Positions 28,311-48,169 are shown, counted from the stretch's first letter. The stretch is DNA of 64,000 nucleotides from Candidatus Forterrea multitransposorum CG_2015-17_Forterrea_25_41 (GCA_009392915.1 CP045477.1:544001-608000), one strand, 5' to 3'. The notes: generated by a model from the letters alone, not told the origin. Program-made: numbers and translations.

Positions 28311-29363
28311 ATGGACAAAATAATTGGAATTAAAGTAAATAAAGATAAAGCACAAGAAACAATTTCTAAAATAAAAGAAGAAAATAACTTTAATTCAAGA
28401 TATAAGATAATTAGAGAAAAAGAAAACATAATCATACCTATTAAAAAAATAACTTCAGACTTAAATAAAAATAACATAGTAGAAATTAATAATCCAGAAA
28501 AACAAAAAGAAATTGGACTTACATACAAAGAAATACTTAAAAAAGAAATAAATTCTAAATATATAGATAATCTCCCTTCTTCTTATGATATTGTAGGAGA
28601 CATTATAATAATTAACATAGAAGATAAAGAATTTCTTAAAGAATATAGTTCAAATCTAACTAATTCTCTTAAAAAAATACATCCCCACATAAAAGTAGTC
28701 TTAAACAAATCAAAAGAACATCATGGAACCTTTAGAACACAAGATTTAGAATGGATAGGTGGCGAAAATAGAAAAGAAACAATTATCCAAGAAAACGGAT
28801 GTTATTTAAAAACAGATGTTGAGAAAGTATTTTATTCAACAAGACTTGCAACAGAAAGAAAAAGAATAGCCTCTTTAGTCTTAGAAAATGAAACAATAGG
28901 AGTTTTCTTTGCAGGAGTAGGTCCTTTTTCAATAGCCATTGCAAAACTTGCAAAACCAAAAGAAATTATTTCCATTGAACTTAACCCTATTGGTGTTAAA
29001 TATATGGAAGAAAATATTTTAAAAAATCAAATGGAAAAAATAATAACACCAATAGAAGGTGATGTTAAAGAAATATCTAAAAGATATCCAAACTACTTTG
29101 ATAGAATACCAATGCCACTTCCAAAATCTGCAGAAAATTTTTTAGATGATGCAATTTTTTCAATAAAAGATAAAGGAATAATACACATTTATAATTTTGT
29201 ATCTAAAAATGAACCATTTAAAGAAATTGAAAAAATAATAAAAGAAAAAGAAAAAAAGAATAATTGCAAGATAGAAATAATATTTAAGAAAGTTATTAGA
29301 AGTTTTTCTCAAACCACTGTACAGATTGTAATGGATTTAAAAATATCTAAAGATCTTTCTTAA
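28311..29363 (+). CDS. Trm5/Tyw2-family tRNA methyltransferase (Met-10+ like, m1G37 type)
   Basis: Class I MTase core VGVFFAGVGPFSIAIAK (GxGxF). The acidic/NPPY-like motif is ISIELNP. The N-terminal D1-like region is typical of archaeal Trm5. Confidence 0.7.
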   Translation: MDKIIGIKVNKDKAQETISKIKEENNFNSRYKIIREKENIIIPIKKITSDLNKNNIVEINNPEKQKEIGLTYKEILKKEINSKYIDNLPSSYDIVGDIIIINIEDKEFLKEYSSNLTNSLKKIHPHIKVVLNKSKEHHGTFRTQDLEWIGGENRKETIIQENGCYLKTDVEKVFYSTRLATERKRIASLVLENETIGVFFAGVGPFSIAIAKLAKPKEIISIELNPIGVKYMEENILKNQMEKIITPIEGDVKEISKRYPNYFDRIPMPLPKSAENFLDDAIFSIKDKGIIHIYNFVSKNEPFKEIEKIIKEKEKKNNCKIEIIFKKVIRSFSQTTVQIVMDLKISKDLS

Positions 29364-31716
29364 GTTTAGGTTTCTTTTTAGAAGTTTTAGATTTAGAAAC
29401 TTCTTTTGGTTTTACTTCTTCTTTTTTCTTTGAAGGTTTAATTTTTGAAACTATTTTTTTAACACTTTTAATAGAATCACTTTTTTCATTTTCTAAAAGA
29501 AGTTTCTTTCTTTTCTCAAGTTCAAATATTTGTTTATCAATAATTTTCTTTTCAAAATCAACTGAAGCACTATCATAAATAGTTTTAGATTTAGAATCCT
29601 TTAAAACATCTTTATTTTTTATTCTTTCAAGCTCTAAAAGATATTTATCTCTCATTTCTTTATAAGTGAAAGGACTTATTTTTCCTTCAATTAATTTTTC
29701 ATCTAAATAACCTATTTGTTTAATTATTCCTTCCTTTGAATGATGTTTTTTAAATCTTTCAACTTCAAAGACAATTGTTAAAACCATTAAAAACAAAGCT
29801 GCAACAAATAAATAAAGATAAACATCTTTCTTCTCTTTTGAATAAATATAGATGTTTTGAGAAGAAGTTTCTTTTTCTTTACTTACATTTTCATCTTCAT
29901 CAGAAACAATAATTACAGAGCCTTGATTTGAAGAACTAATATCAATAACTAATGTTTCAAGATCTGTATTTAAATAATAATCAAGAACTATTTTTTCTGT
30001 TTCATAAAGATAATGTGCAAAATTAAGTATAGAGTTTGCAACATTTAATTGAGATTTTGCTTTTTCTTCATCTTTATTTTTATAGAAATCATGAGCATTT
30101 TTATAATAAATACCATGATCTAAGAAAGTTTTAGACCAAACATAATTTTCATTATTCATTGCACTTTGATTTCTTAAATCTTTAGTTAATTGATCATATT
30201 TAATATTAAAATCATTTAATGTAAAATTATTTTTACTGTCTTCTTGTGTTTTTATAACAGCTAAAGCAGTTGCTGAATCATAAAGTGAAGTTACATACCA
30301 TCCTCTTTGGTAATTAATCTTTGCAGCATTAAGTCTTCTTTTTAAATCTTCAGTATCTGCTATGTTTGGAGCAACTAAAATTAATTGATTTTCAACAGAT
30401 ATAATGCTTTCTTGTGCTTTTTCTTTAAAAAAGTTAGATTCTACAAACTTTAAATCATTATTTGTTGTAATTGATGCATCTAAAAAATCATTTGCAATTT
30501 CTGTCCATGCTAAAGCATAAGCATATTCTTGTATTTTTGAAAAATTATTTATAGTTTGCTTTTCTTTTAAAGATTCAACTTTATCTCTTGCCCAAGTAAT
30601 TCTTTGTCTTCCACCAACACACCATTCTAAATATTCAATTGAACAGTTGTTAGATCTGTTTTCTGTTAAAGTTATTTTTTCATCAAGTTCAGAAACTCTA
30701 AGATCAAAAATAATTGAAGAATCTGCTAAAATTGATGGATTTGTAATAATTTCTTCAACAGAGATTATATTAATATAAGCTAAAAAAGAATTATTTGCTG
30801 CTGAATAAAAATAATTATTTTCATAAAACTTTTTTGAATTTTCAACAAGTTCTTCAGAATAAGTAACTGTTGATAAAAGTGTATCTAGAACATCTAAATC
30901 TTTTATGTTAGAGGAAGATATTTTAGAATTAATTGAAGATAATTTTTCTTCAGTATTAAGAATATATTCTTCAGTTATTTTTTTTAAAGGTTCAACAGCT
31001 TTAGAATATTCAATTTTATTATAAACAAAATCATCTACTTTTTCTTCTTGAATAGAATTTACATCAATTGAAGAAACATCTTTAAAAGCATAATCTAGAA
31101 CATCATCAATAGTTGATACTTCAATAATCTTTAAACCCCATTCATTATAAGCATGCTCAATTAAATCAACTTGTTTAATTTCATCATCTTCATTAATCAC
31201 TTGAGATCTATTTCCTTGAGGTATGAAAAATAAATCAACACCTATTTCAGAAGCTTTTTTTGCTTTATAATAAATTCCACCAACATCTCCAATATATCCA
31301 TCAATTGAAATTGAACCAGTCATACTTACATTTTCAGGAACTGGAGAATCTTTAAACATTGAAATTATTAAGAGAGCCATTGCACCACCTGCAGATGGAC
31401 CATCTATAGTGTGTGCATTTGAAGTAATATCAACTGTAAAATCATACTCTTGCTTAATATCTTCTTTTATAACTGAATCTGCAACTGCAATTGCATTTTT
31501 AAAAGATTCTTGTGTTGAAGAACCTACTATTGATTCATCTATTGAAGAATATATTTTTCCAGTACCAGGTATAATTTTTACATTTAATTGTGCATCTTTT
31601 GCACTTGTTTCACCAGATACTGCGAAAATCTTCATATTAGCATCAGAAACTAATGCAAAAAGATTAGGCATTAAAAGTATTAAAAATAATAATATTGCAA
31701 TTGATTTAATTTTCAT
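29347..31716 (-). CDS. Secreted/membrane-anchored protein with a Lon-like S16 peptidase domain
   Basis: N-terminal signal peptide (MKIKSIAILLFLILLMPNLFAL). The Lon proteolytic domain IDGPSAGGAMALLIISMF...VSMTGSISIDGYIGDVGGIYYKAKKASEIGVDLFFIPQGN carries the catalytic Ser in DGPSAG and a downstream Lys. A large middle domain is followed by a C-terminal TM helix and a Lys-rich tail. 789 aa. Confidence 0.65.
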   Translation of the reverse strand: MKIKSIAILLFLILLMPNLFALVSDANMKIFAVSGETSAKDAQLNVKIIPGTGKIYSSIDESIVGSSTQESFKNAIAVADSVIKEDIKQEYDFTVDITSNAHTIDGPSAGGAMALLIISMFKDSPVPENVSMTGSISIDGYIGDVGGIYYKAKKASEIGVDLFFIPQGNRSQVINEDDEIKQVDLIEHAYNEWGLKIIEVSTIDDVLDYAFKDVSSIDVNSIQEEKVDDFVYNKIEYSKAVEPLKKITEEYILNTEEKLSSINSKISSSNIKDLDVLDTLLSTVTYSEELVENSKKFYENNYFYSAANNSFLAYINIISVEEIITNPSILADSSIIFDLRVSELDEKITLTENRSNNCSIEYLEWCVGGRQRITWARDKVESLKEKQTINNFSKIQEYAYALAWTEIANDFLDASITTNNDLKFVESNFFKEKAQESIISVENQLILVAPNIADTEDLKRRLNAAKINYQRGWYVTSLYDSATALAVIKTQEDSKNNFTLNDFNIKYDQLTKDLRNQSAMNNENYVWSKTFLDHGIYYKNAHDFYKNKDEEKAKSQLNVANSILNFAHYLYETEKIVLDYYLNTDLETLVIDISSSNQGSVIIVSDEDENVSKEKETSSQNIYIYSKEKKDVYLYLFVAALFLMVLTIVFEVERFKKHHSKEGIIKQIGYLDEKLIEGKISPFTYKEMRDKYLLELERIKNKDVLKDSKSKTIYDSASVDFEKKIIDKQIFELEKRKKLLLENEKSDSIKSVKKIVSKIKPSKKKEEVKPKEVSKSKTSKKKPKLKKDL

Positions 31717-33072: not shown

Positions 33073-35190
33073 TTATTCTAAGCCACCATCAGTAATAGTC
33101 CAATTATAATTATTAATTAATATATTTTTTGCATCAACTGCAGAACTATCATAATTAACTGCTGTTGCACCTAATGTAACATTACTTTTTAAATTAGTTA
33201 AATTTGACCATCTAATTAAAATATTAGAATAATTTACAGTAGATAATGCATAATCAAACATATGAGCCATATCAGTTACATTTGAAACATCCCATGCACT
33301 AATATCTTGATCAAAACAAATATCAGAAATACTAAAGAAACATTGAAACATTCTGTTCATATTTGTAACATTTGAAACATCCCACATACTTATATTTTGA
33401 TTAAATGAATAATTATTATAAAACATAGAAGACATATCAGTTACATTTGAAACATCCCAATTATTCAATGGTTGATTAAATCTAGTACATCTAAACATTG
33501 CAGCCATATTAGTTACATTTGAAACATCCCAATTATTTATAGAAGTATTAGTCCATGAAAATACACCATTATTTGGAGGACTACTTACACTACAATTTTG
33601 ATAACCACTAAAAGTTCCTGCTAAATTTGTAATTCCGTTTAAATCAGGAACATCAGTTGCAGTTACAACTAAATTTGTAGCTCCAGAGAAATAATATCCA
33701 CTATTTCCAAATTTTAAATTACCCCATTGACTAATTTCAGTTAATTTTAATTTATCTCCAGAATTATTAAACCTAAAACCTTCAATAAAACCTGTTATGA
33801 TTACATCATATATCCCAGAACTTGAATATGTGTGAGTTTTATCAGGATCACTATAACTTGTAACCTCTGATGTAGTTCCATCTCCCCAATAAACTTTAAA
33901 ATTATAATTATTACTATAAAGAGAAGCAGAATCTAAAGGTAATGTAATTTGATTTGCATTTGAAGAACCAGTACTAATTTTTGTAGTATCCCATTTAGAT
34001 ATAAATGCATCTGAAGTAGGTATAAAATTTGCAGTTAAATTCACATTACTTGAAGGCATTGTATAACTAAATGAAGGATCTGTACTTACTACAGTACCAT
34101 TTTGATCAATCCAATTTACATAAGAAAATTCAGCAATAGAAGAGACAGATATATTTGCAACATCTCCAGGATTATAATTTCCTGCACCATTTAAACTAAT
34201 ATTTACTGAATCTGGATTTTCAATTAAATTTAAATTATAAGCAACAGGCAAACTAAAAGTTGCAGTTACATTTTTAACTTCAGTCATAGAAACAGAACAA
34301 CTAATTTGAGGTCCAGAACAATCCCCAGACCATCCTTCAAAAACATATCCTGAAACTGGAGTTGCATTTAATTGAACAGATTGTTGATCAGGAAAAGTTG
34401 CAGAACAGTTTGTTTGAGATTCTAAACAATTAATTCCAGAAGGATAAGTTTCAACAGTTCCTCCAATTGTTTTAGTTAAATTTAAAGTATAACTGTTTGG
34501 AAGATTAAAAGTTGCAGTTACATTTCTTGCTTGAGTCATGGAAACTGTACAAGTAAGATTAGTTCCTGAACAAGCACCTGACCATCCACCAAAACTATGA
34601 CCAGTAACAGGATTTGCAGTTAAAGTAACTGAAGTGCCTGAAGAATAATTTTCAGAACAATTAGTTCCACAATTAATACCAGAAGGATTTGAAGTCACAG
34701 TTCCATTTCCCGCACCACTTAAAGATACATTTAAAGTATAAGTTGATGGAGCAGTTGATGAAAAATTTGCAGTTAAAGAAGTATTTGAATTTAAATTAAA
34801 AGTATATGGATTTGTGGAAAGTGAACCTGTTGGAGTTGTCCAATTATTAAAAGTATAACCTGAAAGAGCAGTTGCAGTTGCAGTAACTGAAGTTCCACAA
34901 CTAAAAGTTCCAGCTCCTGAAACAGTACCACCTGCTGGAGGGTTTGAAGATAAAGTTAAAACACAATTACTACCAACACCTGAAATTGGTTCATAATCTT
35001 CAGGATTTGTTAAATCTTTAATAAAACCATCAATTGTTGAATTTGTAGCAGCATCAATTTCTCCTGCTTGATCTACTTTTTCATTTGTAAATCCAATTAA
35101 AATAGTTGCTAAAATAACAGCACCTAAAATCAAAACACCAATAATAATTATCATCTCTAAAGAGACTTGAGCTTTTTTACTTTTATTCAT
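33073..35190 (-). CDS. Large DUF361-type pilin-like adhesin with Flg_new-like repeats and BspA/DUF285-like C-terminal repeats
   Basis: The class III signal is MNKSKKA|QVSLEMIIIIGVL. The ORF-track start at 35265 adds a 25-aa Lys-rich extension that is probably untranslated. Four repeats have the form ...NPSGINCGTNCSENYSSGTSVTLTANPVTGHSFGGWSG... C-terminal 25-aa repeats are NWDVSNVT(N/D)M(A/S)xMF. Many NxT/S sequons. Confidence 0.7.
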   Translation of the reverse strand: MNKSKKAQVSLEMIIIIGVLILGAVILATILIGFTNEKVDQAGEIDAATNSTIDGFIKDLTNPEDYEPISGVGSNCVLTLSSNPPAGGTVSGAGTFSCGTSVTATATALSGYTFNNWTTPTGSLSTNPYTFNLNSNTSLTANFSSTAPSTYTLNVSLSGAGNGTVTSNPSGINCGTNCSENYSSGTSVTLTANPVTGHSFGGWSGACSGTNLTCTVSMTQARNVTATFNLPNSYTLNLTKTIGGTVETYPSGINCLESQTNCSATFPDQQSVQLNATPVSGYVFEGWSGDCSGPQISCSVSMTEVKNVTATFSLPVAYNLNLIENPDSVNISLNGAGNYNPGDVANISVSSIAEFSYVNWIDQNGTVVSTDPSFSYTMPSSNVNLTANFIPTSDAFISKWDTTKISTGSSNANQITLPLDSASLYSNNYNFKVYWGDGTTSEVTSYSDPDKTHTYSSSGIYDVIITGFIEGFRFNNSGDKLKLTEISQWGNLKFGNSGYYFSGATNLVVTATDVPDLNGITNLAGTFSGYQNCSVSSPPNNGVFSWTNTSINNWDVSNVTNMAAMFRCTRFNQPLNNWDVSNVTDMSSMFYNNYSFNQNISMWDVSNVTNMNRMFQCFFSISDICFDQDISAWDVSNVTDMAHMFDYALSTVNYSNILIRWSNLTNLKSNVTLGATAVNYDSSAVDAKNILINNYNWTITDGGLE
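33271..33540. repeat. Four copies of a roughly 75-bp periodic repeat (core agttacatttgaaacatccca) within the large adhesin gene
   Basis: Near-identical 25-30 nt cores at about 33271, 33364, 33436 and 33509. They encode the repeated NWDVSNVTxMxxMF units. Confidence 0.75.
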
Positions 35191-35279
35191 ATCTTTATCC
35201 ACTTTTTTTACTTTTTTAGATTTTATTATTTTTTTAGATTTAATTTTTTTAACTTCTTTTTTCATAAATATCTTTTCTC

Positions 35280-41451: not shown

Positions 41452-42084
41452 ATGGTAGATAAAAAACTTATTCAAGATACTATTGTTGAATTACTAGATG
41501 CTAACATAGATAAAGACACTATTTATTCAACATTAAAAGATATTGGAGTTTCAGAAGATGAAATTGAAGAAAATTATAAAGAAATGATTGCTTCAAGAAA
41601 AGAAGGTGGGGAAAAAGACACCTCTCCTAAAGAAGAAACTGAAGAAGATGATTCTAAAGAAGAAGAAACTAAAGAAGATGAACCTGAAACTAATGAAGAG
41701 GATACTGATAAAAAAGAAGATGAAGAAATTGAAGATGACGACATCTTTGCAAATAATGATTCAGAAGATAAAGAAGAAGCTGTAAAAAAACAAACTACAA
41801 AAACAGACTTTCTAGAAGAAAATAAAAAAAGAGATGAAGAAAAACAAGAAAAAGAACTTAAAGAAACTTCTGAAACTGTTGACAAAGAAACTAAAAAAAG
41901 TATTTTTGATGATATTGAAAAGAAAAATACTGAAAAAAAAGAAGTGCCTTCTAAAATTAATTCAAGCCAACTTGCAGACATAGAAGAACAAGTTAGAGAA
42001 CTGAAAGCACAAATGAATGCCTTAACAAAAATAATGAAAGATATTTTAGAAGAAAATAGAAATATTTTAAATAAATTAAAATAA
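41452..42084 (+). CDS. Highly acidic (E/D/K-rich) protein with a C-terminal coiled coil (hypothetical)
   Basis: 210 aa. The low-complexity acidic middle region explains the antisense and alternate-frame ORFs at 41574..41981 and 41588..41785. Confidence 0.45.
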   Translation: MVDKKLIQDTIVELLDANIDKDTIYSTLKDIGVSEDEIEENYKEMIASRKEGGEKDTSPKEETEEDDSKEEETKEDEPETNEEDTDKKEDEEIEDDDIFANNDSEDKEEAVKKQTTKTDFLEENKKRDEEKQEKELKETSETVDKETKKSIFDDIEKKNTEKKEVPSKINSSQLADIEEQVRELKAQMNALTKIMKDILEENRNILNKLK

Positions 42085-44058: not shown

Positions 44059-44994
44059 ATGAATATTAAATGCGATAAATGTTCTAAAGATGCTTTAATA
44101 TATTTAGCATACGGAAAGCATAATTTCTGTAAAGATCACTTTAATGATTTTTTTGAAAGTAGGTTTAAAAAAACAATTAGACAATTTAAACTTTTTTCAC
44201 AAAAAGATTATTTAGGAGTTGCAACTTCTGGTGGAAAAGACTCAATGGTTTTACTTTATTTAATAAATAAAATATTTAGAGAAAAAAGAATTAATTTCTG
44301 TGCAATCTTTGTTGACGAAGGAACTGATAATTATTCAAATAAAACTTTCCAAGTTGTTAAAGATTTTTGTACTAAAGAAAATATTAAACTTGTAACCTCC
44401 TCTCATAAAAAAGAATTTGATATATCAACACAAGAGATTGGAGAAAAATATGATAAAAAAGAAGGAACTGTTTGCACTTATTGTGGAGTTTTAAGAAGAA
44501 AAACATTAAACAGACTTGCAAATAAAGAAAAAGTTTCAAAACTTCTAACAGGACATAATTTAGATGATGAATGTCAAACTATTTTAATGAATCTTTTAGA
44601 TAATGATACCTTAAGATTTTTTAGAACAGGTCCTGAAACAGGAATTATTGATATTGAAAATACAAGACCTAGAATTAAACCATTTTACTTAACTCCTGAA
44701 AAAGAAATTGCAGCATATGCTCTCTTTAATCAAATACCTTTTCATGATTGTAATTGTCCTTTCTTTAGAACAGCTAAAAGAAATCATTTTAGAAATTTTT
44801 TAAATGAAACAGAAATTATACATCCTGGATCTAAATTTTCATTAGTTAAAAGTTTTTTAAAAATAAAAGAACTTTCAAATCTTAAAAAAATAATTACTAA
44901 AAAAAATCTAAAAAAATGTAAAATTTGTAAAGAAGATACAAGTCAAGATATATGTAAGGCATGCGAGTTAATTTCAAAAATTAAAAAGATATAA
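44059..44994 (+). CDS. NcsA/TtuA-family tRNA 2-thiolation PP-loop ATPase
   Basis: N-terminal Zn finger CDKCSKD...CKDHF. PP-loop VATSGGKDSMVLLYL (SGGxDS). Catalytic Cys region CTYCGVLRR. C-terminal CxxC...CxxC. Confidence 0.8.
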   Translation: MNIKCDKCSKDALIYLAYGKHNFCKDHFNDFFESRFKKTIRQFKLFSQKDYLGVATSGGKDSMVLLYLINKIFREKRINFCAIFVDEGTDNYSNKTFQVVKDFCTKENIKLVTSSHKKEFDISTQEIGEKYDKKEGTVCTYCGVLRRKTLNRLANKEKVSKLLTGHNLDDECQTILMNLLDNDTLRFFRTGPETGIIDIENTRPRIKPFYLTPEKEIAAYALFNQIPFHDCNCPFFRTAKRNHFRNFLNETEIIHPGSKFSLVKSFLKIKELSNLKKIITKKNLKKCKICKEDTSQDICKACELISKIKKI

Positions 44995-45025: not shown

Positions 45026-45098
45026 GGTCCTGTGGTCTAGTGGTTATGACGTCGCATTGACATTGCGGAGATCCCCAGTTCGATCCTGGGCAGGACCA
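45026..45098 (+). tRNA. tRNA-Val (anticodon GAC)
   Basis: GGTCCTG acceptor stem, anticodon stem TCGCA/TGCGG with loop TTGACAT, T-arm CCCAG-TTCGATC-CTGGG, 3' acceptor strand CAGGACC, discriminator A. CCA is not encoded. Confidence 0.85.
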
Positions 45099-45122
45099 CT
45101 TATAATTTTATAAAGAAAATTT

Positions 45123-46760
45123 ATGAATCCTATAAAAGATTTAAAAACTGCATCTGAAAAGATAAAACAAAATAGTGAAAAACTAAAAGATGACTTTATT
45201 AATTATAAATATATATTAAATCAGATTAAGCAGATTATAGATTTTCAAGACGCTTTAATTGACCCTTTAAAATCACAAAAGAAAATTTTAAAGAAAATAA
45301 TTAAAAGAAATAAAAATACTGAGTATGGTAAAAAATATTCTTTTTCTAAAATAAAAACTATTGAAGATTTTCAAAAACAAGTACCAATTATAAAATATAA
45401 TGATATTTCAGAAGATATTGAAGAGATAAAAAAAGGAAAACAAAATATTTTTACTAGAGACAAAGTAGTATACTTTGCATCAACCTCAGGAACTACAAGT
45501 AAGATTAAACTTATACCTGTTACGAAGCAAAGAATAAAAAATTATAATAAAGAATTTGCTTTATGGGCTGTATATGTTCTAAAAGATTATGTGAAAATTG
45601 CAAATGGAAAAACACTTTATTTTGCAGGACCTTATTTTGAAGGTAAAACAAAAGGTAAAATACCATATGGTAGTATCTCTGGATACCTTCCTTTTAAATC
45701 ACCTTGGTATGTTAAAAAGAAAATATCAAATCCAATAAATGTTTATAACGAAATGAATTTTAATAAAAAAATTAAAAAAATGGCAATCCATGCACTCCAA
45801 GAAAATATAACCCAAATTGCTTTCACAGCACCAATTGAAGCCATTCTTTTTTTAGATTATATAAAAGAAAATAAAACTAAATTAATAAAAATAATTAAAA
45901 AGAAAAATTCTAAAAGAGCAGAATATCTATCCAAAATTGATGATTTTAAAGCGATTAATATTTGGCCAAATATAGGACTTGTAAGTTGTTTTAGATCAAA
46001 GACAAATGAAATGTATATTGACACATTAATGAAAAAAATTGGTAAAAAAATTGAAATTAGAGATCCAGGTATAAATGCTTCTGAAGGTAGAATATCTATT
46101 GGTATATCAAAAGATGGTATTTCAGGAGTATTTCCATTAAATACAACTTTTTTTGAATTTATTGATTTTAATAAAGAAAAAAAAGAAATAATTACAGTAG
46201 ATAAATTAAAATTAAATAGAAAATATAAAGTAATAATTACAACTCAAGAAGGACTATATAGATATGATATGGGAGATGTTGTAAAAGTAACCAGTTTCTT
46301 TAAAAAGATTCCTGAAATTAAATTTTTTACAAGAGAAAATTATCTTAATATCGCAGGAGAACTTGCATATGAAGATGAAATTGTTAAAGCTTTAAAAAAA
46401 TCTTTCACAGAAGAAAATTTTAAAATTAAATACTACACTGTAATTCCATATCTTAAAGATCTTTCAAAAAAACCAAGATATGAAATATTACTTGATCTTG
46501 AAGAAAATAAAACTGAAAAAGAAATTATAAAACTAAAAGAAAAAATAGATTTAAATCTTAAAGAAACAATAAACGACTACAAACAAATGAGAGAAGAGTT
46601 TGGAAGAATGGATATGCCAGTTATATCTATTCTTGAAAAAAATAGTTATGATGAATTTAATAAAAAAAGAGTTGTAGGCTCTGGAAATCCAAAACCAATA
46701 AATATACATCCTGAGCAGAATTTTAGAGAAAATTTTAAAATAAAGAAAACATATGAATAA
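45123..46760 (+). CDS. GH3-like acyl-adenylate-forming amido ligase (ANL superfamily)
   Basis: 545 aa. GH3-type motif VVYFASTSGTTSKIKLIPVT (SSGTT-like P-loop), then YGSISGY and the typical GH3 length and organisation. Confidence 0.55.
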   Translation: MNPIKDLKTASEKIKQNSEKLKDDFINYKYILNQIKQIIDFQDALIDPLKSQKKILKKIIKRNKNTEYGKKYSFSKIKTIEDFQKQVPIIKYNDISEDIEEIKKGKQNIFTRDKVVYFASTSGTTSKIKLIPVTKQRIKNYNKEFALWAVYVLKDYVKIANGKTLYFAGPYFEGKTKGKIPYGSISGYLPFKSPWYVKKKISNPINVYNEMNFNKKIKKMAIHALQENITQIAFTAPIEAILFLDYIKENKTKLIKIIKKKNSKRAEYLSKIDDFKAINIWPNIGLVSCFRSKTNEMYIDTLMKKIGKKIEIRDPGINASEGRISIGISKDGISGVFPLNTTFFEFIDFNKEKKEIITVDKLKLNRKYKVIITTQEGLYRYDMGDVVKVTSFFKKIPEIKFFTRENYLNIAGELAYEDEIVKALKKSFTEENFKIKYYTVIPYLKDLSKKPRYEILLDLEENKTEKEIIKLKEKIDLNLKETINDYKQMREEFGRMDMPVISILEKNSYDEFNKKRVVGSGNPKPINIHPEQNFRENFKIKKTYE

Positions 46761-47805
46761 ATATTTTTCAGAAAACTATTTTCAAGCAAGAGAAAAATTT
46801 AGAAAAAGTACAGCTAAACTTAAGAAAAGTAATTATCATATAATTGATGATTTAACTATTGATGTTGCTGAAAGCCATCCTAAAAAAAAAGAAAAACTAT
46901 TAATTATAATTTCAGGAACTCATGGAGTAGAAGGATATGTTGGAAGTGCTTTTCAATTATTTTTTATTGATAAATATCTATCTAAAATTAAAGATAAATA
47001 TGGGATATTATTAATTCATTCTCTAAATCCTTATGGTTTTAAAAATAATAGAAGATACAATGAAAATAATGTTGATCTAAATAGAAACAATAACAAAGAC
47101 TTTTCAAAAATTAATTATTTTTTTAATAAAAATAAATTATTTAAAGAAGAAAATATATTTAATATTAAAAGAGCATTTCTAAGTGATAATTTTGAAAGAA
47201 TCAGATATAATTTACTATTGTACAAATTAATTTTAAAGCATGGAATATCTAAAACAATACAATTAATTGGACATGGACAAAATAAATATCCTAAAGGGTT
47301 ATGTTATTCAGGAAAAAATAAAGAAAAATCAATCTTATTTTTAGATAAAAAAATAAAAGAAATAACTAAAGATTATAAAGAAACAATATTAATTGATGTT
47401 CATACTGGAGCTGCAAAAAAATATAATTTAGATATATTTACTGCAAATAAACTAAATGAAATTAAAATAGATGTTCCTTTTAAGTCAACAAACACTAAAA
47501 AAAAAGGAACTGATCATATTGGTGGAATTGAGAATAGTTTGTTTGAAAATTCAAAATCAAAAAAAAATATTCATTTCACTTTAGAGTTTGGAACAATAAA
47601 TAAATATTCAACAGTAATCTCTCTAAATTATCTTAGTTATTTATTGTTTAAAGAAAATCAAATAACAAACTTTGGACCTTTTGAAAAAATACCAAAAATT
47701 AGACAAAAAATGAAAAAAGCTTATTTTCCAGAAAATAAAAAATTTAAAGAAAATATGTTAAAAAAAACAAAAGACTTTTTAGAAAGAATTATAAATTATC
47801 AATAG
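46753..47805 (+). CDS. M14-like zinc carboxypeptidase / AstE-AspA (DUF2817-like) family protein
   Basis: LLIIISGTHGVEGYVGS matches the GxHGxE zinc-binding motif of succinylglutamate desuccinylase/aspartoacylase and DUF2817 proteins, with downstream His (DVHTG). It overlaps the GH3-like gene by 8 nt. Confidence 0.5.
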   Translation: MNKYFSENYFQAREKFRKSTAKLKKSNYHIIDDLTIDVAESHPKKKEKLLIIISGTHGVEGYVGSAFQLFFIDKYLSKIKDKYGILLIHSLNPYGFKNNRRYNENNVDLNRNNNKDFSKINYFFNKNKLFKEENIFNIKRAFLSDNFERIRYNLLLYKLILKHGISKTIQLIGHGQNKYPKGLCYSGKNKEKSILFLDKKIKEITKDYKETILIDVHTGAAKKYNLDIFTANKLNEIKIDVPFKSTNTKKKGTDHIGGIENSLFENSKSKKNIHFTLEFGTINKYSTVISLNYLSYLLFKENQITNFGPFEKIPKIRQKMKKAYFPENKKFKENMLKKTKDFLERIINYQ

Positions 47806-48169
47806 AGAGTTTAATCTCTAAAATATTATTTTTATAACTTGAAACTATACTTTCTTTAACAACTTTAAAACCTAACCAAACTTCTTTATAGAAAGAAAAA
47901 TCGTGACTTCTTATCATTAAAATATTTCTATCATCATCAACATCAAATCTTATTTTATTTAAATTATGAGGAGTATACATGGTAAGATAAATACTCTCTT
48001 TATCAAAAACAAAACTATCAATATCGTCGCACATTTCAAAATCATCTTTATCTCTATTAAACTGTATATTAAGATTAATAGGTTCAGATTTTTCTAGTTT
48101 GTTTTTACGAGCAAAATCTAAGATCATTTGTTTAATTGCTTTGTCAATTTCATCAAGATTTTTTGTCAT
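47789..48169 (-). CDS. Possible small heat-shock protein (Hsp20/alpha-crystallin-like)
   Basis: 126 aa. The C-terminal beta-rich segment with ...NNILEIKLS resembles an ACD G/NxLxI motif. Weak. Confidence 0.35.
   Translation of the reverse strand: MTKNLDEIDKAIKQMILDFARKNKLEKSEPINLNIQFNRDKDDFEMCDDIDSFVFDKESIYLTMYTPHNLNKIRFDVDDDRNILMIRSHDFSFYKEVWLGFKVVKESIVSSYKNNILEIKLSIDNL

Follow-up and report, generated by a model that had tools for sequence, protein, structure and literature searches.

A window of 64,000 nucleotides from Candidatus Forterrea multitransposorum CG_2015-17_Forterrea_25_41 (GCA_009392915.1, CP045477.1:544001-608000), by which we mean the whole stretch of DNA that was analysed, carries on its plus strand two overlapping genes, one for a GH3-family acyl-acid amido synthetase, which is an ANL-type adenylating ligase (45123..46760; complete), and one for a DUF2817-family, M14-fold zinc carboxypeptidase-like amidohydrolase (46753..47805; full-length and cytosolic). 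With a probability of roughly 55%, we consider that the two proteins constitute a functional module, in which the ligase forms an N-acyl-amino-acid-type conjugate and the peptidase acts as an accessory de-conjugating enzyme for turnover, recycling or proofreading. The host is a DPANN archaeon; homologues that are identical or 96% identical carry the label "archaeon" or "Candidatus ainarchaeum", and Candidatus Iainarchaeum is the source of a relative with 84% identity. Open reading frame (ORF) calls and direct inspection of the sequence bear out the gene pair as it was described in an earlier, sequence-only reading, with its coordinates, its 545 and 350 amino acids and its overlap of 8 nt. At the junction (ACATATGAATAAATAT), the ATG of the peptidase (46753) precedes and overlaps the TAA of the ligase (46758-46760), the shared letters being 46753..46760 on the plus strand (ATGAATAA). 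Each of the two genes is present in one copy in the window.

The ligase is a bona fide member of the GH3 family and, as judged from its sequence, is predicted to be catalytically competent and cytosolic. It matches the N, M and C domains of Pfam GH3 (PF03321, PF23571 and PF23572) with E values of 6e-52, 1e-21 and 8e-9 and scores of 177.2, 77.3 and 36.6 bits, which all exceed the Pfam gathering scores (cut-off 23.6). The P-loop STSGTTSK, already pointed out in the sequence-only reading, is present and, like ASEGR and GLYRYDMGD, is invariant in 100 homologues; the same 100 sequences show no variation at S122, G123, K129, E321, Y379, R380, Y381 and D385 and hardly any at T125. The three nucleotide-binding motifs, (S/T)SGTT..K, Y/A-SE and YRxGD, align to those of Vitis GH3-1, and among solved structures the sequence matches plant GH3 enzymes only. 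In line with this, the AlphaFold2 (AF2) model (pLDDT 91.5) can be superposed along its entire length on GH3.6, GH3.5, JAR1 and PBS3 with TM scores of 0.80-0.82; Foldseek places GH3.6 first (E 1e-36, TM 0.82) and PaaK-type ANL ligases as the next class (1e-14). The sole NCBIfam match is the OlsH model (NF052613), with 114.8 bits against an equivalog cut-off of 620 bits. Since this score is far under the cut-off, the ligase is a relative of OlsH, not an orthologue, and orthology is ruled out by operon content as well. Indeed, no OlsI-type alpha/beta-hydrolase was seen among the window neighbours that were scanned or read by eye, nor among the gene calls of four further paired loci (L161, L163, L169 and L171). 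Residues 1-46 of the ligase (45123..45260) form an N-terminal extension that is predicted, at reduced confidence, to be a single long helix (pLDDT 56-80); it is found in the clade of the window (P0009, P0022, P0031) and is missing in most other archaeal and bacterial GH3 proteins.

The second protein belongs to DUF2817 (PF10994), which it matches with an E value of 1e-59 and 203.2 bits against a gathering score of 23, over residues 5-338 and profile positions 1-341 of 341. Its score for AstE_AspA (PF24827) is under the gathering score, and Peptidase_M14 (PF00246) gives no match at E up to 0.01; a PF00246 match is precomputed for a few of its homologues. By its motifs, the protein would carry the complete M14 active-site set, namely H57-x-x-E60, R100/R101, the D108-N112 clamp, H217 and E278. 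In particular, the GxHGxE zinc site that had been reported is present as SGTHGVEG, which contains H57 and E60 of the zinc-binding HxxE; H57 is nearly invariant, E60 and H217 are invariant among homologues, and the HGxE aligns to 3b2y. The D108-L-N110-R111-N112 block aligns to the DLNRN/DPNRS of MpaA and REP34 (a carboxylate clamp of the Asn144-Arg145 type), and R100 and R101, at the position of the polarising Arg, are nearly invariant. E278, in LEFGT, is also nearly invariant and lies within a core beta-strand like the catalytic Glu of carboxypeptidase A, which makes it a candidate for the general base of the Glu270 type. The family assignments and intact active sites of both proteins thus agree with the sequence-only reading: the ligase does not belong to an unrelated adenylating family, and the motifs of the peptidase are not those expected of a non-catalytic homologue.

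With the M14 metallocarboxypeptidases and AstE/AspA deacylases (carboxypeptidase A/B/T, MpaA, succinylglutamate desuccinylase, aspartoacylase) the window peptidase has in common the HxxE...H, the N-R clamp and the core fold and, in E278, a putative counterpart of the catalytic Glu, and its best structural matches are true peptide carboxypeptidases, not deacylases. It differs from these enzymes by its Pfam scores, by helical insertions of about 110 residues and by invariant motifs of its own family, G175-Q176 and E301-N302-Q303. It has no signal peptide, propeptide or membrane anchor. This property extends to its relatives, as an N-terminal hydrophobic anchor is found in none of 43 archaeal-clade peptidases, compared with 55 of 77 other DUF2817 homologues, so that the archaeal clade is a cytosolic group that branched off from a family whose members are mostly extracytoplasmic. 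The members of DUF2817 that are tied to GH3 are precisely this offshoot, which is a signature of recruitment. Bacterial DUF2817 proteins belong to the same Pfam family, are 28-33% identical to the window peptidase and have the same invariant residues, yet they are mostly membrane-anchored, have no GH3 neighbour and lie in unconserved neighbourhoods.

The DUF2817 family is large, with 1,829 clusters recovered at an E value cut-off of 1e-3 in a single search, and no functional description of it was found in the literature. The 55 anchored bacterial members (including P0165, P0168, P0193, P0222 and P0224) imply extracytoplasmic action. Immediately downstream of the bacterial genes lies a metallo-beta-lactamase-fold gene in four loci and a class A beta-lactamase-like gene likewise in four, and nothing recurs strongly enough in these neighbourhoods to hint at a substrate. 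Two anchor-less bacterial members are followed by a SIR2 deacylase (L166 6001..7860) and by a GNAT acyltransferase (L167 6001..7717), respectively; both neighbours make or remove N-acyl groups, in single, anecdotal cases. DUF2817-like proteins, about 31-33% identical to that of the window, are also encoded on metagenome-assembled giant-virus contigs (GVMAG) and one other viral contig (L173, L174, L175), where the match covers window residues 5-345 in L173 and L175 and 9-308 in L174; most other viral matches cover the generic M14 motif region only (residues 43-112).

The order and adjacency of the two genes are conserved beyond the window. One genome per GTDB species was scanned with a GH3 alignment as query, and the DUF2817 profile was then run on the loci. 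This reference scan gave 25 archaeal-type GH3 loci (22 labelled archaeal, all DPANN-like) and 53 bacterial ones, mostly labelled Omnitrophota or Planctomycetia, and the peptidase lies directly downstream of GH3 in six of the former and none of the latter. The reverse scan, performed on metagenomes with a DUF2817 alignment as query, gave five archaeal-clade peptidase loci, four of them with GH3 directly upstream (the exception being L082), and 75 bacterial DUF2817 loci, none with a GH3 neighbour. Two bacterial loci looked up separately, L001 (GH3) and L002 (DUF2817), are both unpaired, which brings the totals to 0/54 and 0/76. Five more look-ups of archaeal-clade peptidases added four paired loci (L161, L163, L169, L171) and a lone one (L170). 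Of the eight archaeal-clade peptidase loci that were reached independently of GH3, six follow a GH3 gene. Collectively, the same-strand order of GH3 and then DUF2817 is found in at least 15 distinct archaeal loci (the window, L003-L006, L009, L012, L081, L083-L085, L161, L163, L169 and L171), down to about 40-46% identity.

These loci fall into three genomic contexts, which are unrelated, all other neighbours being different. In the first, the order is rpL15e-NcsA-(VTT)-(tRNA-Val)-GH3-DUF2817, followed by RNase HII or UvrB; the second is MCM-NmrA-primase-like-GH3-DUF2817-rpL3-rpL4 (L009/L171); the third is a locus with surface proteins and PLD (L163). The co-conservation across archaea that had been proposed is therefore real, as the pair recurs in three contexts, but the linkage is asymmetric and facultative: the majority of archaeal GH3 genes have no peptidase (only 6 of 25 loci are paired), and the archaeal-clade peptidase is mostly beside GH3. 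The translational coupling that had been read from the 8-nt overlap has a similar fate, as an overlap of that length occurs in the window and in L171 and is not general. The spacing of the two genes ranges from -8 to about +150 nt, with a 5-nt overlap in L009 and 2-12 or about 136-147 nt in the others, so that the 8-nt overlap is a local feature.

In a neighbour-joining tree, the clade of the window is paired in 12 of 12 cases; pairing is also seen in a second group (L163, L009) but in none of the other archaeal GH3 clades. L007 and L009 have the same gene order and flanking proteins that are 61-95% identical, and the peptidase is present in L009 alone; no remnant of a peptidase pseudogene was found in the 966-bp gap of L007. 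The two proteins show correlated pairwise identities (r = 0.84, 45 locus pairs), which fits joint inheritance, and the peptidase diverges faster than the ligase, with a mean identity of 45% versus 60%. As read from the sequences, the neighbours of unpaired archaeal GH3 genes are unrelated housekeeping genes, and no alternative conserved partner was found among them. Contigs from soda-lake sediment that are labelled Spirochaetia/Spirochaetaceae (L008, L010, L011 and also L013; 50-56% GC) carry GH3 proteins that are 45-47% identical to that of the window and are nested inside the archaeal-type clade of the tree, which indicates inter-domain transfer or mis-binning.

We infer the substrates, the action of the peptidase on the product of the ligase, the direction of the reactions and their physiological role as follows. 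The GH3 enzyme would adenylate a carboxylic acid with ATP and transfer the acyl group to the alpha-amino group of an amino acid, giving a conjugate with a free alpha-carboxylate, R-CO-NH-CH(R')-COO-. The Asn-Arg clamp of the DUF2817 enzyme would then hold this carboxylate, while its putative catalytic Glu and zinc would cleave the adjoining amide bond, the same bond that GH3 makes. N-acyl amino acids are the minimal substrates of M14, AstE and AspA enzymes. As the conjugate would be a minimal M14-type substrate with an alpha-carboxylate for the clamp to hold, the peptidase would hydrolyse the product class of the ligase. The ligase would be the core function and the peptidase would be dispensable. 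Indeed, we regard the peptidase as accessory because the ligase is widespread without it, because it is cleanly lost in a close relative, and because it evolves faster and is mostly confined to GH3 neighbourhoods.

The chemistry of related GH3 enzymes is consistent with such a product. OlsH from Singulisphaera acidiphila, published in 2025, is the only characterised prokaryotic GH3, no archaeal member being among those characterised, and converts free fatty acid and ornithine, with ATP/Mg, to N-acyl-ornithine; its operon also encodes the methyltransferase OlsG and the alpha/beta-hydrolase acyltransferase OlsI (PMC12493201). By analogy with OlsH, our best guess for the acyl group of the archaeal conjugate is a fatty or other hydrophobic acid. 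The bacterial GH3 proteins nearest the archaeal clade are about 30% identical to the archaeal ones, and their genes recur in a cluster of methyltransferase, SDR, nitroreductase, alpha/beta-hydrolase and MR/MLE enolase-superfamily enzyme, followed by GH3. The MR/MLE gene, present in 19 of 54 bacterial GH3 loci and immediately upstream of GH3 in 18 of these 19, resembles L-Ala-D/L-Glu epimerase, N-acetyl-D-Glu racemase and OSBS. In five bacterial loci (L030, L032, L037, L065, L066), a C45 Ntn acyltransferase/hydrolase (NF040521, 6.6e-39) directly follows GH3, which is an independent ligase-plus-amidase pairing. These partners act on N-acyl amino acids, dipeptides or amide bonds, which fits an N-acyl-amino-acid product of this branch of GH3.

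The bacterial cluster also deserves a description of its own. It resembles a biosynthetic gene cluster in L028, L039, L041, L070, L079 and L080, and a second GH3 gene is found in L033, L048, L051, L052 and L054. The hosts are Omnitrophota, Planctomycetota and Chloroflexota, and in some loci the cluster is extended by GNAT-GH3 upstream and by MFS-radical SAM downstream. With the OlsH-OlsG-OlsI operon it has GH3, a methyltransferase and an alpha/beta-hydrolase in common, and its product may be a modified N-acyl amino acid or aminolipid.

Several observations weigh against the proposal that the peptidase de-conjugates the ligase product. In the reference scan, 18 of the 25 archaeal-type GH3 loci have no peptidase within 6 kb (one further locus being uninformative), and two archaeal-clade peptidase loci, L082 and L170, have no adjacent GH3. 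The peptidases of these two loci are 54% identical and closer to each other than either is to the query, so that they probably represent one sub-lineage with a broken linkage. The co-divergence of the two proteins is also what shared vertical descent alone would yield. On the side of the enzymes, H217 and E278 are mapped to the zinc and catalytic residues of M14 by invariance and fold without a residue-level structural alignment, and, as read from the alignment, the archaeal clade does not conserve the residue that aligns with the Tyr248-type position of bacterial homologues. No substrate or activity has been reported for the ligase, for the peptidase or for any other protein of the DUF2817 family. 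Finally, two opposing enzymes, if co-expressed, represent an ATP-wasting cycle unless they are regulated. Opposing activities are co-encoded in other systems, such as glutathionylspermidine synthetase/amidase, the Pup ligase and depupylase, and cyanophycin synthetase and its hydrolases, and the objection is thus real but not decisive.

The need for a futile cycle would vanish if the two enzymes worked one after the other in salvage, an explanation that we take seriously as a minority possibility. The carboxypeptidase would free a C-terminal amino acid, or unmask a carboxylate, on an imported peptide or conjugate and the ligase would use the product, the pair thus remodelling scavenged molecules instead of making and breaking one bond. 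The linkage of the genes supports salvage just as it supports de-conjugation, DPANN archaea rely on imported building blocks, and the resemblance of the peptidase to peptide carboxypeptidases, not deacylases, also speaks for salvage. However, L007 keeps the ligase without the peptidase present in L009, which means that the ligase must get its substrates otherwise, and in the loci examined no transporter or other pathway gene is conserved alongside the pair.

It is rather improbable that the proteins share no function at all and are unrelated housekeeping enzymes kept adjacent by compact DPANN genomes and vertical inheritance. The unpaired majority of archaeal GH3 genes, the two peptidase loci without GH3, the complete lack of pairing among bacterial relatives of both families and the housekeeping nature of all other neighbours would be expected in that case. 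On the other hand, order and adjacency persist in three contexts where every other neighbour is different, down to about 40% peptidase identity, the membrane anchor is uniformly lost in the archaeal peptidase clade, and GH3 precedes six of the eight independently sampled archaeal-clade peptidases. Macromolecular tagging, in which the ligase would act on the carboxylate of a peptide or protein, by activating it or by adding an amino acid to it, and C-terminal residues would be removed by the M14 enzyme, by analogy with tubulin tyrosination/glutamylation and its reversal by cytosolic carboxypeptidases, is the least probable of these explanations and appears very unlikely.

The proposed conjugation and de-conjugation have a precedent in plants, where GH3 ligases are paired with M20 conjugate hydrolases. 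The plant GH3 enzymes that act with ILR1/IAR3-type amidohydrolases in auxin and jasmonate conjugate homeostasis belong to the same ligase family and have the same motifs and fold as the window ligase, and in both cases an ATP-dependent conjugating enzyme would be combined with a metallo-amidohydrolase that frees the amino acid. The hydrolase is of the M20 type in plants and of the M14 type in archaea, where the genes are clustered. The OlsH-OlsG-OlsI operon is less similar, as its partner is an O-acyltransferase (OlsI), whereas the partner in the window is a predicted hydrolase and no methyltransferase or alpha/beta-hydrolase partner is seen. Nothing functional was found in the literature on GHDC, archaeal GH3 or the pairing of GH3 with DUF2817; publications that link GH3 with DPANN appear to concern glycoside hydrolase family 3. 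Nothing in the analysis shows unusual chemistry: ligase-plus-hydrolase logic is already known, and it is the GH3-DUF2817 combination for which no earlier description was found.

The match between the product class of the ligase and the substrate class of the peptidase provides a testable lead for two groups of uncharacterised proteins. If confirmed, it would extend the plant-type logic of conjugation and release to archaea with a different hydrolase family, and it might reveal a new class of metabolites in host-dependent DPANN archaea. A more specific and frankly speculative version, which we hold to be doubtful, is that DPANN archaea, being unable to produce most building blocks themselves, have a module for making and removing N-acyl amino acids (lipoamino-acid-like) from scavenged carboxylic acids, in which DUF2817 would represent a novel class of M14 hydrolases for N-acyl amino acids. 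If true, this would correspond in archaea to the aminolipid synthesis of bacteria or the hormone conjugation of plants; DUF2817 and an archaeal GH3 would each receive a function for the first time, and the notion that archaea lack N-acyl amino lipids would be contradicted.

The surroundings of the pair in the window were also considered. Upstream lies a tRNA-Val(GAC) gene (45026..45099), which ends 23 nt before the ATG of the ligase, and, further upstream, the gene of an NcsA/TtuA-like PP-loop protein (44059..44994), a tRNA 2-thiolation gene. The position of the pair after the tRNA and thiolation genes had been described correctly, except that there is one thiolation gene and not several, and it reflects the inherited synteny of one lineage (the window, L003, L012, L083, L161 and L169). 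As this adjacency is absent from the L009/L171 and L163 contexts, it is lineage synteny only, and a functional link to tRNA-Val or the thiolation gene is ruled out. A foreign island or mobile element is likewise ruled out by uniform GC (about 23% throughout the window, with no compositional break at the pair), by the lack of a match of ligase or peptidase to the PADLOC anti-phage models and by the absence of the archaeal-type pair from viral contigs. A scan for sigma-70 promoters and terminators gave background levels only, this promoter type being the wrong one for an archaeon. Downstream, on the opposite strand, lie an ORF of 126 amino acids (47789..48169) and RNase HII. The former is convergent with the peptidase gene, shares 17 nt with its 3' end, has no Pfam or PADLOC match and is kept at the same place in the syntenic loci L003, L004, L005, L012 and L169.

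Other genes of the window may be recorded as minor observations. A protein of 789 amino acids (29347..31716, minus strand) has as its sole match the C-terminal proteolytic domain of Lon protease, which is placed N-terminally (residues 64-211), the other 570 or so residues having no family match. At 41452..42084 on the plus strand, a synteny-conserved gene (cluster c5) encodes a low-complexity protein of 210 amino acids that is very acidic and rich in Lys and Glu; opposite to it, a Ser-rich ORF of 135 amino acids (41574..41981, minus strand) is probably a shadow ORF. Finally, a predicted surface protein of 730 amino acids (33073..35265, minus strand) contains InlB B-repeat and DUF285 domains, weakly matches a class III (archaeal pilin-type) signal peptide and may be an adhesin of a host-dependent archaeon.

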